From positions 1 to 64,000 of IMG/VR virus record IMGVR_UViG_3300013426_000018: a stretch of 64,000 nt of DNA, one strand, 5' to 3'. The position numbers and the translations under genes are program-made. The number at the start of each line of letters is the position of its first letter. Positions within the stretch are counted from its first letter, which is position 1. Source of the DNA: a virus. Lineage: Duplodnaviria > Caudoviricetes. The notes beneath the pieces are model-generated. The model did not search any database and was not told the DNA's origin. It was given only the letters and a program-made list of their open reading frames with translations. Below, piece by piece: positions 3,719-18,897 of the stretch.

Positions 3719-6700
3719 TTATTTTCTATTAGCATACTAAGATGCTTGATTAATAAGATTATTAAATGCCTATTCGATTTCATTATGGTCTTGTACATTC
3801 GGAAATTCTGCGGTAATCTTAACTTCCTATTGTAAAGTCTAAGATTTATTATCATGAATTCCAGAAGCAACAAGATCACCAAAACCAAAGCTTGCCTAGC
3901 GGGCATTTAAGTCTATAGTATCTAACATTGCTCTAGTGATTTGAACTGCTGCTAGCATATTTGCGGTATCAGTTTCATTTAAGACTAATTCTTTCTAATG
4001 GAGCATAGCCAATCTTCCAAAACTACCCCAATTACCAGTATAACCACCAGAATCAAAACTATCAGGCTCTTTAGCATCAGAATCCATCTTTTTAGCTACA
4101 TTATAAGTAACCTCTAAATCACTGGGATCAATGGAAAGAGCTTCCAACATATTATTAAAAGACTCAATAATGTCCAAATTAGCTTGGATAATTTTTTCCA
4201 TAGACATACCATAAGATTCTTGCCAAGAATTAACCGAATCTGTAATATCGTCAAATGCGGTTTTCATTTCTTCAGACATCTTCTTGACAGCTTCAGTGCC
4301 CGCATCACTATCGCTAATAACTTGATTAATTGCCTCAGAAGCGTCAGTTGCAAACTGCTTAGTGCTAGTACCAGCAGCATTCATGGCTTCCTCAAGATTC
4401 AAATAATACTGTCGTGAAGCTTCTAATAAGCCTTCAGTGAGTCCATCCACAGAATTTTTTAATATATCTGTAAAATTAGCAGTATCAGATTCACTATCTA
4501 ATAGAGTTCCTAATAAAGTATCCTTGAAAGTCGTAGCAAAATTCTCTAAATCAGAAATTTTATACCCAGTAGTATCATGGTAGTTCTACCAATCAATATT
4601 ATAAAGTTCCTTATTATTATCGATTGCCTTTTGAAGTTCATTCTACTACATATTCATTTCTTCCTCATACTAATCTTGGACTCTCTTTACAGCTGCGTAA
4701 TAATCATCAATACTAGCATAATCTTGAATGCGTATTGCCGCAATAGCTTCCTACATCTCTTTACTAGTAGAAATAAGTTTTTCGCTCATTTCATCAATAT
4801 AATTAGAACTTAAATCCTACATGGCATAAAGAGCATCTTCATACTTCTATTGGGCAGAATCGATTGCATCGCTACTTTGAGTATAAATATAAGACCAATT
4901 GCCTTCATTATCTTTCTATAGTCGCACAGTGTTCTTAGCTCTTTGGGCTTCCTCTAATTCGATTTCTGCAAGACGTAGGTCATATGTCTTTTGTAAATAT
5001 TCCAAATCATATTTACTCATTTCATTGCCATCTTCTTGGAGGTCATTGATTTGCCCAAGCAACTTTTTCAATTTCTGCTTGCCAGAAATTATATCTGTAT
5101 CATCGATTGTCTTATTAATATCTCTACTTAATTTACTTAACTCATAAATTTTTTGATAATCATCAAGCATAATATCAGCTTTTTCTTGTTGCCTTGAGAA
5201 ATCTTCGCTCAGCCCATCCAATCCGCCAAGAGCATAAACAGATTTATTAAAAGTATCTATTAAGTTATTCATAGTATTTTCAAATTGAGTAGCTAAGCTC
5301 TCTAAAGCATCCTACCAAGCCTACATCATTTCTTCATTACTACTTTCAACTTCTTCATTAATAGTATCTAAAGTCTATTGCCAGAAATCAATAGAAGCTT
5401 GATCTTTGCGGGCTTCGGCATCCGCTAATTTAGAGGAAGCTTCATCTCTTGCTTTTACTATGGTTTCATATTCACTCTTAACACTTCTTAATTTATTAAT
5501 TGCGTTATCTGTGGTGCGTTGGGCCAAATTTGTCATAAAAGCGTCAGTAATCCCTAAAGTATCTTTACCAACTATATCAATAATATTCTTATAATCATCC
5601 AGAACCGTATTGTAATGATCTATTGAAGCAATGCCCTTATCAAGTTTTTCCTTCCACGCATCAAATGCGGACATTACTTTATCTTCGATTTCTTTGCGTA
5701 AATCATCAAATTGGCTATTTAAATCCAATAAATTATCTCGATATTCTTTAATAGCACTAATCTAATCATCAGTAAGAGATTTGCCATTTAGAACTTCTAA
5801 ATTACCCGCAAGTATTTGACTAATTTCTGCTGCACTCATAGTAAGAGCTAAGACATCATTTAATCCTTGCTTATTAATAGCAATTTGTTGTTTTAAATTA
5901 TCAGCTTTCTAAGACATTAATTCAATAGCATCTAGTGCTTTGAAGGCATCATCATCAATACGACCTAGTTTATATTCTAGAACTTTAATTTGGCTATCTG
6001 GGATATCTAATTTAATTTCTACTTCATATTGAACTTGTTCTAACTGTAAATCAACTTTTTGATTTTGTAACTCTTGTAATTTAGATTGTTCGTCTCTTGC
6101 TAAATCGTAAGTTTCTTCATACTATTCAATATATTTTTCTAATAGCTCATATTTCTTTTCAAAAATTTTCCATTCATCGCTATCATCGGTATATTTCTGA
6201 GCCATTCGATTATACTCTTCAAACATGGCATCTTGTATTTCATCGAAATTAGAAATATTACCGCTTTCATCATATTCAATGCCTGGGCCGCCAATGTAAG
6301 AATTATAAGCTTCTTCCATGATTGATTTATCAGTTGGAAGATTGGCTCTTATTTGACGAAGATATTCCTCTTGAGCATCAATTAATTCTTGTGTTTTAGA
6401 AATTTCTGAATCCATATACTTTAGACGATCTTTGCCAAAAGCCCTATCTTTGGCTTTGTTTAAATCATCATAAGCAGAATTCAAATCTTCTATTTGATTC
6501 TTTATTGTATGATAACGTTCTTTATCGGAATAATTCTTTTGATCGGCATGAGAAGAAGATTTTGTGCTTCCTTTTCCACCGCCAGAAGATTTTGGAGACT
6601 ATGGCGTATAAGATTTACTTCCGCCTTTTTTTGTAGCAGATTTAATTACTGGGACCCATACCTCTGTAACACCTTTGATCTAATCTTCAGCATTTAAATC

Positions 6701-14658: not shown

Positions 14659-14823
14659 TTAATCATTTTCAATGGAAATGATTCGTCTTTGCTACTTCTT
14701 TTTAGGTCGAGTAGCAATAATAGGAATTTCTTTCTCTTCAATTTTTATTTCTTGTTTTTCTTCTTCTGGCTTTTTTTCTACTTTATTAGGCCGCACAGGC
14801 CAAGAAGTATGTTTTATAGCCAT
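14659..14823 (-). CDS. Small charged hypothetical protein (54 aa)
   Basis: TAATG overlap with the major tail stop; one TAG; followed by a terminator hairpin at ~14617-14651. Confidence 0.55.
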
Positions 14824-17800
14824 TAGAACATACTATCGTGTTCAGACTCATGCACAGTATTATGACGATGCAAAGACTGACTACCAGCTTCTTCGATAAT
14901 TTGAATTACAGAGAGGACTTTCTTAGTTTTATCAAATTTAGTATAATCGGGGAAAGCATCCATTGTAAATGTGAAGCTAGAAGGATCGCCAGAAGAAGCC
15001 ATAGTAAAGGTAAAGTTAGACTGAATCTTGCAATTAGGAATAATAAATTCAGCTGGCATATCAACACCATTCTGGTCACGGAATAAAGTAGAAGCCTCAA
15101 GGTAATAGTTACCACCAAATTTATCAGGAGTAATCTCAATCTGACGAGCATTGCCTTCACGGGCAACATAATAATCAACCATTACACTGTCAAAAGAGGG
15201 CAATTCACCTTTAAGTTCATAAATATGATGTTCATCACTTTCGCCTTCAGTTTTTTCAGTGTAAATTTTTGGTAACTTTTTGATAGTGATAACATAACCT
15301 GTTTCAGCTGTTCCAGCAACCTTTGCATGCTCAGGAATATAAGGCTCAGAGACAATTTCACCATTCTTCATAAGCATAACATAAGCATAATTATCGCCTA
15401 AATTATCGGGTAAATAAGGTTCTTCACTTAACTTTACAGTAAAAGACTTTACATCAGCATTAGTTTGATTTTCAGTCAGCTTTGTCTATGCGTCTTCATC
15501 AGAATACAACTCTACGCCACCATTCTTGGCAACAGTTTCAGTCATATGTTGATAAACAGGAGCATCTGGCTTAGCATCGATCAAACCGGCACCAGAAAGA
15601 ATCATAAAACCTTCTGGAGAAATTAGAGCATCCTCCATGGTAAAGGTAACAGTTCTCAAATATCTTTTTAATTTCTTAAAAAGTTAGACTATATCTTCAT
15701 CATAACTCAGCTTGGAGATTTCGAGGAGTTATGACATGTTCCTCACTGTCTCTAATAAATAGAGCACTTAGTCGTTGAAGTTTTTAATTATTATTCGCCA
15801 AAAATCTGAAGTAATTAAAAATTTTTCTAATTCATTAAAATACTAATAAGGAATAATTAGTAGAGGAATTCGATTATTTTCAGCAAAAGTCTATTTAATA
15901 TAATCATGTCGTTGAGTATAAATTAATCTCTCTGGAGTATTCCATTGAGTTCCTCTTGCCGAATAGTGTTGATCTCCATTATTCTCTATTAATCCAATTA
16001 ATTCATTTTCATTATTAAATAGCGCAAAATCAAAAGGGAGAGTGTTTTTATCTTTACAATCTTCAAATCGATATTCTCGTTTAAAAGGAATCTAATATTT
16101 TTCTAAAATCTAAGCCATTAAAGCATTAGCTTTAGAATTTATACAACCACATGAAGTTGTTTCCCCAGAAAATAATCTTTTTCCAAGGACAGTTGCTTTA
16201 TTTCCGCAATCACACTTACAAATATAATAATAATCTTGCCCTTTTAATTCAATATCTTCAATTGTTAATAAACCATGTTTTTCTCCAATGTGATTAGAAG
16301 CATTTTCTTTGAATCTCTTTTTTGTTAATTCTTTCTTTAAACACCCACAACTTTTAGAGCTTCCTTGCTTTAAACTACCTCCGAAAACACTTTTTATTGT
16401 TCCGCATTCACATCTACAAATATAATTTCTTGATTTACTAACATCTTTTTTTAAAACTTCCCATTTTCCAAAATGTAGTCCTAATAAACTTTCTGAGCAA
16501 CTTTTAGAACAAGCCGTGTTAGTTCCATTTATTAAAGCAGTTCCTCTTACTGGTCTAATATTTCCGCACACTTCGCACTTACATAAAAAATATTTAATTC
16601 TATGTTCATTGCTATGGTCAAATTTAATGACCTACCAATGACCAAACTTCATTCCTGGCTAAATCTCACTTGGAGTCATATTTTAAAGTCTCCTTTTTCA
16701 ATAGATTAATAATTAACTTACCTGCGGATTATCTTATAATTTTATTCTTTTTACTATACCAAGGTAATTACTCTTGCCATTATACGCATCACTACTATAA
16801 TTTAGTAAATAAAATCTTCAAGAACTCCCCGCAATTCAAGGAATAGATTCAGAAGGAGACGAACTGAGACCTCTCTTCTCCTTCCCAAGCTACCAGTCGA
16901 GCATTACCACGTCCCAATGTCTTCCATGCGGATCGCTAAACCGCACGCGTTAAACAGCTATACTTTTCTATATATGTATAGTTGAGACTATATCTTAATC
17001 TTTTCAGATTTTAAATATTTCAGCTGCCAAAAGCTTGCAGCTTACTTCCTCACGGAATAGTCGTTGAACATTAATTAAAATTAATATCTTTGGTAAGATA
17101 AGTCCAATTTCTTTTATTTTTAATAGCTGAAATTGTGCTTTTAGAGCAATTATACTTTTTACAAATTTGACTATACGGTGCTCCATTTAATAAATCATTG
17201 ATTATATCAATAACTTGACTTTCTAATAATTTACTTGCTGGATTAGTTTCTCCAATTAAATGAGCAGCTAAGCCAAGCTTTACGGCATGGATTCTATTTT
17301 CTTGATTAGTAACCCATTCTAAGTTATCAATACAATTATTTAATTTATTTCCATCAATATGATTAACTTGAAGTTCTTCAAAATTGTCAATAGGATTAAA
17401 ACATCTCATAACTAATCTATGACGAAAATAAAAACGTTGAGTCCCATCTTTTAAAGTTAAGCAATTTTTTACATAGCCATTTTTTAAAGCATCTTTCATT
17501 TTTTTCTCACCATTATCTGTAAAAAGCTCGCCATTTTTATTAATATAATAACGATCTTTAACTTCCGGTACAAATTTACTAATTTGGACTAATTCCATTA
17601 ATAAAAATCTCCTTCTCTTAATTCTAATTTTTTGCTGCTGATTACCTTATGTGGATTTTTATAAGGCGTTCCAGCAATTAAAATAATTTGCTAATAATAT
17701 TTCTATTATTAGGAGCCAACATTAACCCTAAGCATAAACTGTCGTCGCAGCACCTTCCATACTGGAAGTTTTTAACGTATCAAAATAACACACTGGTTCA

Positions 17801-18098
17801 CCAGCGTAGAAAATCTTGTTGCCGATTTTTTGAGCAGCCTTAGCCTTTAAAACGACATCACAAATTTCTCTTCATAATATAATATTATGGACTATCTCTT
17901 ACTAATGTTCTAGCCATTAGCATATCCATTTGGAACTACGTATCAATAGTAGCCCTACAAAATCGATTAGGATTCCTAGTCTCTACAGCATTTTATTGCC
18001 ACGGGATTCTTACGTTCCCCGTTAGCTTGCTTTAAAAGCAAACCCCTCTGATAAAAGGAAAGGATATGTTAGTGCGAGAGATTCACACCAAATTTCAT
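14823..18098 (-). CDS. Major tail (tube) protein, 344 aa, 4 exons (18098-18085, 17872-17725, 16914-16876, 15656-14823)
   Basis: Spliced product MKFGV|REICDVVLKAK...TVYAQG|GRGNARLVAWEGE|RTVTFTMEDALISP...; exon total 1035 nt; position between neck genes and chaperone/tape measure. Confidence 0.85.
15657..16875 (-). mobile_element. Group I intron 3 of major tail gene (1219 nt) carrying an endonuclease ORF
   Basis: AATTGCGGGG / AATCCGCAGG / TTCAACGACTA / AAGATATAGTCT; terminal G; P10 CAGTTC pairs with 3' exon GAACTG. Confidence 0.88.
15768..16679 (-). CDS. Intron-encoded endonuclease: repeated CxCxCG zinc-binding modules plus Vsr/DUF559-like C-terminal nuclease (303 aa, TAG=Gln)
   Basis: CKCEVCG, CRCECG, CKCDCG, SCGC; C-term LPFDFA...IENNGDQHY...HDYIK; ORF runs into the intron R element. 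Confidence 0.8.
16915..17724 (-). mobile_element. Group I intron 2 of major tail gene (810 nt) with HNH ORF
   Basis: AATTGCTGGAA / AATCAGCAGC / GTTCAACGACTA / AAGATATAGTCT; GGT|TAA 5' site; terminal G. Confidence 0.9.
17071..17598 (-). CDS. Intron-encoded HNH homing endonuclease (175 aa, no TAG)
   Basis: HRLV...QVNHIDGNKLNNCIDNLEWVTNQEN HNH_3-type motif; C-terminal HTH-like segment. Confidence 0.92.
   Translation of the reverse strand: MELVQISKFVPEVKDRYYINKNGELFTDNGEKKMKDALKNGYVKNCLTLKDGTQRFYFRHRLVMRCFNPIDNFEELQVNHIDGNKLNNCIDNLEWVTNQENRIHAVKLGLAAHLIGETNPASKLLESQVIDIINDLLNGAPYSQICKKYNCSKSTISAIKNKRNWTYLTKDINFN
17873..18084 (-). ncRNA. Group I intron 1 of major tail gene (212 nt, ORF-less, second subtype)
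   Basis: GCTAACGGGGAA / AATCCCGTGG / TGTAGAGACTA / AAGAGATAGTCC; P1 GGTGT:GCACT; follows a 14-nt first coding exon. Confidence 0.88.
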
Positions 18099-18114: not shown

Positions 18115-18897
18115 TTATAGAATAAACTTATTTTTTTTCCTCTATAAAAATAACTCGGGGTTATTTTTGTACATATATTGACCCAACCGGCAAGTATCTT
18201 TTTTCCCAAACTTCAAAGAGCAACAAGAATCATCAAAACTTCCACCTTCAATACCTGCTTCTTCTTTTAAAATTTTTAATAACTTAATTAAAAATTTCTT
18301 ACTTCCACAAGTAAAGGCTGAGTTTAAACGATTATTCTTTAACTGCATAACACAGCCATCTCCATCAAAATAACCTCGAATGAAATCAGGTAAATATTCT
18401 TTGGGAACATTAGGAAAATCTAAAGATAAACTTTTTCTTTCCATACCGCCGAGGGAAACAATATCATCATAAATTACTTTACAACTAAAATTAATACGAG
18501 AAGACTATCTATCAACAGAGTCATATAAATTTCCTTCAAACTGTAATTCTTCCGCAATTTTCTTCAATATATATTTATCTTTTTTATGTAAAGTAATATC
18601 AAACATTCGCCCATTATAAATATAACCATTTGCAAACCAAAAGCCCAAAATATAAGACATATTATTAGACCATGTTTTAAAATAATCTTGATTAATATTA
18701 TATTTACGCAAATTGCTTGACTAAATTCTTGATTTTTCTGACTAAGATATTTTTTTTACTAAACAGTTATTTCTATTACAAAATGAATAAATCTAACTTT
18801 TAGTATACTATCCATCAAAAAAATCAACCCATTGTGGCAAAGTTTTACTATTGCTCTAAGACAATAGAAGCTCCTTGTGTTCCGGTAATATTGGCAT
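18115..18897 (-). CDS. Free-standing double-motif LAGLIDADG endonuclease (260 aa, TAG=Gln)
   Basis: YILGFWFANG and FIRGYFDGDG motifs; track ORFs 18505-18711 and 18142-18444 joined via TAG; no flanking intron core found. Confidence 0.88.

Follow-up and report, generated by a model that had tools for sequence, protein, structure and literature searches.

A U·G wobble pair is regarded as the single strict sequence requirement at the 5' splice sites of group I introns, and Hur and Waring reportedly described fungal cox1 cases in which the splice-site pair is C·G. The last exon base (position -1) is virtually always U and exceptionally C; it is G in the group B IStrons, where the U-G pair is shifted (PMC4227781; PMC2504315). 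In the Tetrahymena ribozyme, the amine of the guide G22 bonds A207 in J4/5, and a Watson-Crick G-C at that pair (C at -1) breaks the amine contact and lowers docking about 100-fold (PMC13692252). The wobble also restricts tools for trans-splicing and RNA circularisation to sites with a U (PMC6155759, PMC13692252). Among phages, Twort orf142, which carries three introns, is a tail-tube gene (PMC11878797).

The window analyzed here, a stretch of 64,000 nt, comes from a 174 kb virus record whose late genes decode TAG as Gln, and contains a split gene of four exons and three introns at 18098-14823 (minus strand; all features of the gene lie on this strand). Removal of the three introns leaves an open 344-aa protein, the first 90 residues of which are identical at 85/90 positions to an intronless homologue (L014). 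The joined protein matches PHROG 2729, a virion structural protein, and the Pfam label YomU_Tube comes from precomputed matches on its homologues; a local Pfam search of the protein gave no match, and a sequence search for PDB relatives found none. On these matches, "major tail (tube)" is a reasonable name for the gene. Exon 1 is only 14 nt long (18085..18098) and is followed by intron 1 (17873..18084), a group I intron with a canonical U·G. Exon 2 (17725..17872) holds an in-frame TAG (Gln) at 17728-17730, two codons ahead of the 5' site of intron 2 (16915..17724), which is also a group I intron with a canonical U·G and includes an HNH ORF at 17071-17598. Exon 3 (16876..16914; 39 nt, GRGNARLVAWEGE) ends in A16876, position -1 of intron 3 (15657..16875), a group I intron of 1219 nt without P2 whose terminal G is 15657. 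Exon 4 (14823..15656) completes the gene. A free-standing LAGLIDADG-like endonuclease gene (18115-18897, minus strand) lies directly upstream of exon 1, and such a gene is also present in L137, L141, L143, L211, and L275. The whole genome (G000, 174 kb) has about 20 group I 3'-core motifs, 10 of them in the window. An earlier note on this DNA had counted 12 other introns, all following a U; the motif scan of the window finds nine besides intron 3, and a U·G could be placed by eye for seven of the nine.

Intron 3 splits the invariant WEGERT motif of the protein between WEGE and RT, and its removal restores the motif, which is found at the junction in 80/80 intronless alleles. The sole junction that both keeps the terminal G and produces WEGERT is 16876/15656, with the downstream exon beginning at 15656, so the frame-restoring junction proposed in the earlier note holds. 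At the 5' site, exon bases 16884-16877 form eight Watson-Crick pairs with intron bases 16859-16852, and A16876 is left facing G16860, the A-opposite-G register originally claimed. This P1 is the minimum-energy helix for intron 3, with a pair probability of 0.90 at position -2. The next part of the guide strand (16861..16866) serves both the P1 extension and P10. The P10 that had been proposed from the letters (CAGTTC:GAACTG) is real, pairing 16866-16861 with 15655-15650, but in the window it begins at exon position +2 and runs to +7, with the A at +1 bulged. In L145, L148, L211, and L279, P10 is in perfect register from +1, so that the ligated exons pair in a continuous long helix containing just one A·G.

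The other elements of a group I intron are in place. The P3 5' strand, P4, J4/5, the P5 domain, and the P4 3' strand lie at 16721..16843, and P6', P7 with its G-binding pair, P7.1, P3', P8, J8/7, P7', and P9 at 15664..15780. P3, P4, P6, P7, and P8 were found with their P/Q/R/S motifs, and P3 covaries. With regard to the G-binding site and terminal G, P7 has 5/5 pairs in 20/20 loci and the intron ends in UG in 19/19. P1, between the 5' exon and the internal guide, and P10 are both present. The intron is IA-like, with one hairpin between P7 and P3' and no P2, in contrast to the P7.1, P7.2, and P2 of subgroup IA2. RF00028 matches the 3' half of intron 3 (E 1.4e-8, 40.5 bits), falling below its gathering score of 50 because an ORF splits the core. 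This ORF (15768..16679; ribosome-binding site 16697-16689) encodes a 303-aa endonuclease (code 15) matching PHROG 374/559/9084, is placed in P6, and runs into the P6'/P7 motif. It includes six TAG codons, and several homologous endonucleases are TAG-free. The U·G wobble at the 5' site is absent from intron 3 of the window, and 21/25 loci have A·G, but it is present in three sister alleles with the same core. Judged by its sequence, intron 3 is a group I intron of the phage IA-like kind in all testable respects other than the wobble.

Intron 3 was found at the same site in 24 other loci from independent assemblies, gathered through the contigs of the endonuclease's numerous close homologues and through pattern scans in which base -1 was left free; many hits of the looser patterns were due to chance and were discarded for lack of the exon motif. 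A search of viral contigs with the exact 5' junction gave no match, and the INPHARED phages yielded no intron copy, only short endonuclease matches. Across the 25 loci, which all come from uncultured phages and are related, so that counts are not independent, position -1 and the base opposite read A·G in 21, U·G in three, and A·C in one. The guide position (16860 in the window) is thus G in 24/25. The U·G alleles (L085, L151, and L179) have an Asp codon, and their U sits on the same guide G; the A·C locus is L153 (3930-5190), and the near-identical L275 has A·G. The closest independent assemblies (L136-L144) share the A at the position of 16876; the nearest relatives are L136, which has 90% intron identity and is present in ENA and Logan assemblies, L143, and L144, and all have A.

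The pairing around this A is maintained by covariation. Among 14 distinct duplexes formed by the exon strand of P1 (16877..16884, 8 nt) and the internal guide sequence (16852..16859), 109/112 cells are paired, and positions -4 and -7 show compensatory changes. In the two variable P1 columns, 25/28 cells are Watson-Crick, against 13.1 in shuffles, and 0/20000 shuffles reached the observed value, in a comparison that ignores kinship. The guide tracks synonymous Gly changes as well as the Glu-to-Asp change of WDGE alleles (including L277 and L279). The distance from the guide G to P3 is 17 nt in 15/20 complete loci. Core motifs are canonical and identical in A and U alleles; a comparison of motifs, including J4/5 and J8/7, found no compensating core change specific to the A alleles. 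Among the A alleles, 13 introns open with G, eight with A, and one with C; the three U alleles have C or U at this first intron base. In the family tree, A alleles fall on both sides, and the two U lineages lie apart, although the AU test does not reject their monophyly (p-AU 0.114; unrooted tree). L271 and L273, chosen as an outgroup, nest inside the family tree. They belong to a sister intron in L271-L274 (~1290-2450) with a related endonuclease (66%), inserted five codons downstream. This intron carries an additional P2 hairpin, its U·G is canonical, and the case is an apparent retargeting.

The codon that supplies base -1 suggests selection on that base. Among intronless alleles it is GAA in 40 and GAG in 40 (31:16 among distinct contexts), whereas intron alleles have GAA or GAT only, without GAG or GAC, while the synonymous position -4 varies freely; the comparison is not a formal test, since the alleles share descent and homing carries flanking bases along. 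Asp occupies this position in 23/149 distant tube proteins, a proportion close to that of U among the introns. Most simply, and suggestively, these codons can be read as the mark of an intron that tolerates A or U at -1 but not G or C.

Relatives carry further introns in the same gene. A second, unrelated group I intron family is inserted 7 nt upstream, at the preceding Glu codon of the tube gene, in L084 (reverse strand, ~4885-5129), L204:1045, L275:1031, L285, L296, L299, L300, L308, and L309; together with intron 3, it leaves a 7-nt exon between. If its terminal G is used, an exon A again faces a guide G (L084, L204, L275, L296, L299, L308, and L309), although the site may instead have U at -1 and an intron ending in A, which would give WDGE. 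Another upstream intron, in L209 (880-1340), has an apparent C-G at its 5' site and leaves a 3-nt exon, a single Glu codon, before the A·G intron.

The earlier note had reasoned that intron 3 must either splice or contain an erroneous base. An assembly error or a dead allele at 16876 has next to no credibility: the A is present in 22/25 family loci and recurs throughout the family tree in independent assemblies from ENA, Logan, JGI, and IMG/VR, guide and exon change in concert, the P1/P10 covariation is maintained, and the ORF is intact. As judged from these assemblies, A at -1 is a conserved family variant rather than a sequencing error. That the intron splices is strongly favored by the sequence evidence, and the A appears as a family trait with natural U·G sisters, where the note had presented an oddity of one genome. 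Skipping of exon 3 was rejected, as it would delete 13 conserved residues and single-intron alleles exist; gene calls place no other intron in the upstream part of the gene in L207, L277, and L279, so exon skipping cannot bypass the A·G site there. A canonical site might instead be concealed nearby. A systematic search of the window found a single in-frame U·G option, U16869·G16860 with terminal G15650, which would give WEGEERFTF in frame and at equal length. We give it very little credence, since its pair probability is 6e-6, its ligated duplex is worth -10.9 against -23.9 kcal/mol, and it alters the invariant RTV, while L144, L145, and L207 have no such option and the options of other alleles all differ. 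This equal-length U·G junction (U16869 with terminal G15650) is found in this genome only and could give a minor product.

Moving both sites one base upstream would leave the protein and the predicted duplex energy unchanged: cleavage would come after A16877, at an A-U pair, the last intron base would be a U, and G15657 would complete a GAG codon for Glu as its third base. Group B IStrons provide a precedent for such a shift (PMC4227781). It is nevertheless very improbable here: it demands a terminal U although the G-binding site of P7 is intact, the U·G alleles mark the unshifted register, and the G is invariant in 19/19, as a terminal G would be, unlike the codon's wobble base, which is A in 50% of intronless alleles. 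The remaining explanation accepts the A·G junction but supposes that it is used only with protein help, from a host or phage RNA chaperone or from the ORF acting as a maturase, or at low efficiency, RNA alone needing U·G. Non-wobble pairs carry a known cost (PMC13692252), and the core shows no compensating change to offset it. On the other hand, the tube is an abundant structural protein, the intron ORF matches endonuclease families, and GAG is common in intronless alleles yet A alone is kept, which points to base-specific recognition by RNA. We know of no maturase of this ORF's type. On balance, dependence on protein or inefficient use seems unlikely.

Intron 3 is thus real and conserved and probably functional, and we consider it likely that it belongs to a mobile IA-like group I family that occupies one site in the tube gene and would splice by the two-step, guanosine-initiated pathway with an A·G at the 5' site. 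Selection of the site would depend not on an exon U but on the guide G, the long P1, and the short tether. On this fixed tether, the stable P1 would dock with the A·G in the active site, after which the two standard transesterification steps would proceed. What the sequence itself establishes is a covarying P1 of 8-9 bp, a P1 extension and P10 framing the guide G, and an intact P3, P4, P7, and J8/7. As in U·G, the amine of the guide G stays free in the minor groove when A and G form an imino pair. The A(-1)·G pair is probably an imino purine pair of this kind, in which the exocyclic amine of the G may be free in the minor groove for a J4/5 adenosine, and this freedom, shared with U·G, would explain why A and U both occur at -1. 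It would likewise account for the absence of C, whose pair with G ties up the amine, and of G. The intron would thereby take a host Glu codon ending in A or an Asp codon ending in U. With no compensating change in J4/5 or J8/7, tolerance of the A·G has no visible cause in the sequence. A broader reading, which we hold with some reserve as the odds lie slightly against it, is that these introns are natural protein-free ribozymes for which A·G may be as efficient as U·G, recognition being confined to the guide G and the P1 tether; that the second, unrelated family 7 nt upstream may behave likewise, so that purine-purine sites would have arisen at least twice; and that the scaffold might be retargeted to cut after A.

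A limited literature search, with most subscription papers outside its coverage, found no published natural A·G splice site. A family in which A·G is the majority, with U·G sisters that have the same core motifs, provides matched pairs for asking whether group I introns need the shape of the wobble or only a free guide G amine. Annotation rules that insist on a U in this position of the exon will overlook phage introns or place them wrongly.

Intron 3 most closely resembles the phage IA-type introns with a homing endonuclease in P6, T4 td and those of Twort orf142, in its P3-P9 motifs and terminal G, in an ORF that is placed in P6 and runs into P7, and in an in-frame stop soon after the 5' site; with Twort orf142 it also shares the presence of several introns in a tail-tube gene. 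It differs from them in having A·G for U·G, no P2, a P1 of 8-9 bp, and a single P7.1-type hairpin seen. Like group B IStrons such as BcISt1, it is a natural group I intron cut after a purine, with splicing demonstrated in the IStrons (PMC4227781) and read from the sequence in intron 3. However, the IStrons are cut after G and keep a U-G one base shifted, whereas the cut in intron 3 would follow A, without any shifted U·G, and none of the A alleles of the family has U at +1; the ORF of intron 3 is an endonuclease, with no IS element or transposase. Rare group I introns with C at -1 likewise keep the guide G with an exon base other than U (PMC4227781), but that base is a pyrimidine, while in the intron 3 family a purine-purine pair is the majority state. 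The Tetrahymena ribozyme, with its G22·U(-1), has in common with intron 3 the conserved guide G and J4/5 adenosines, but requires U and tolerates G·C only at low pH (PMC13692252).
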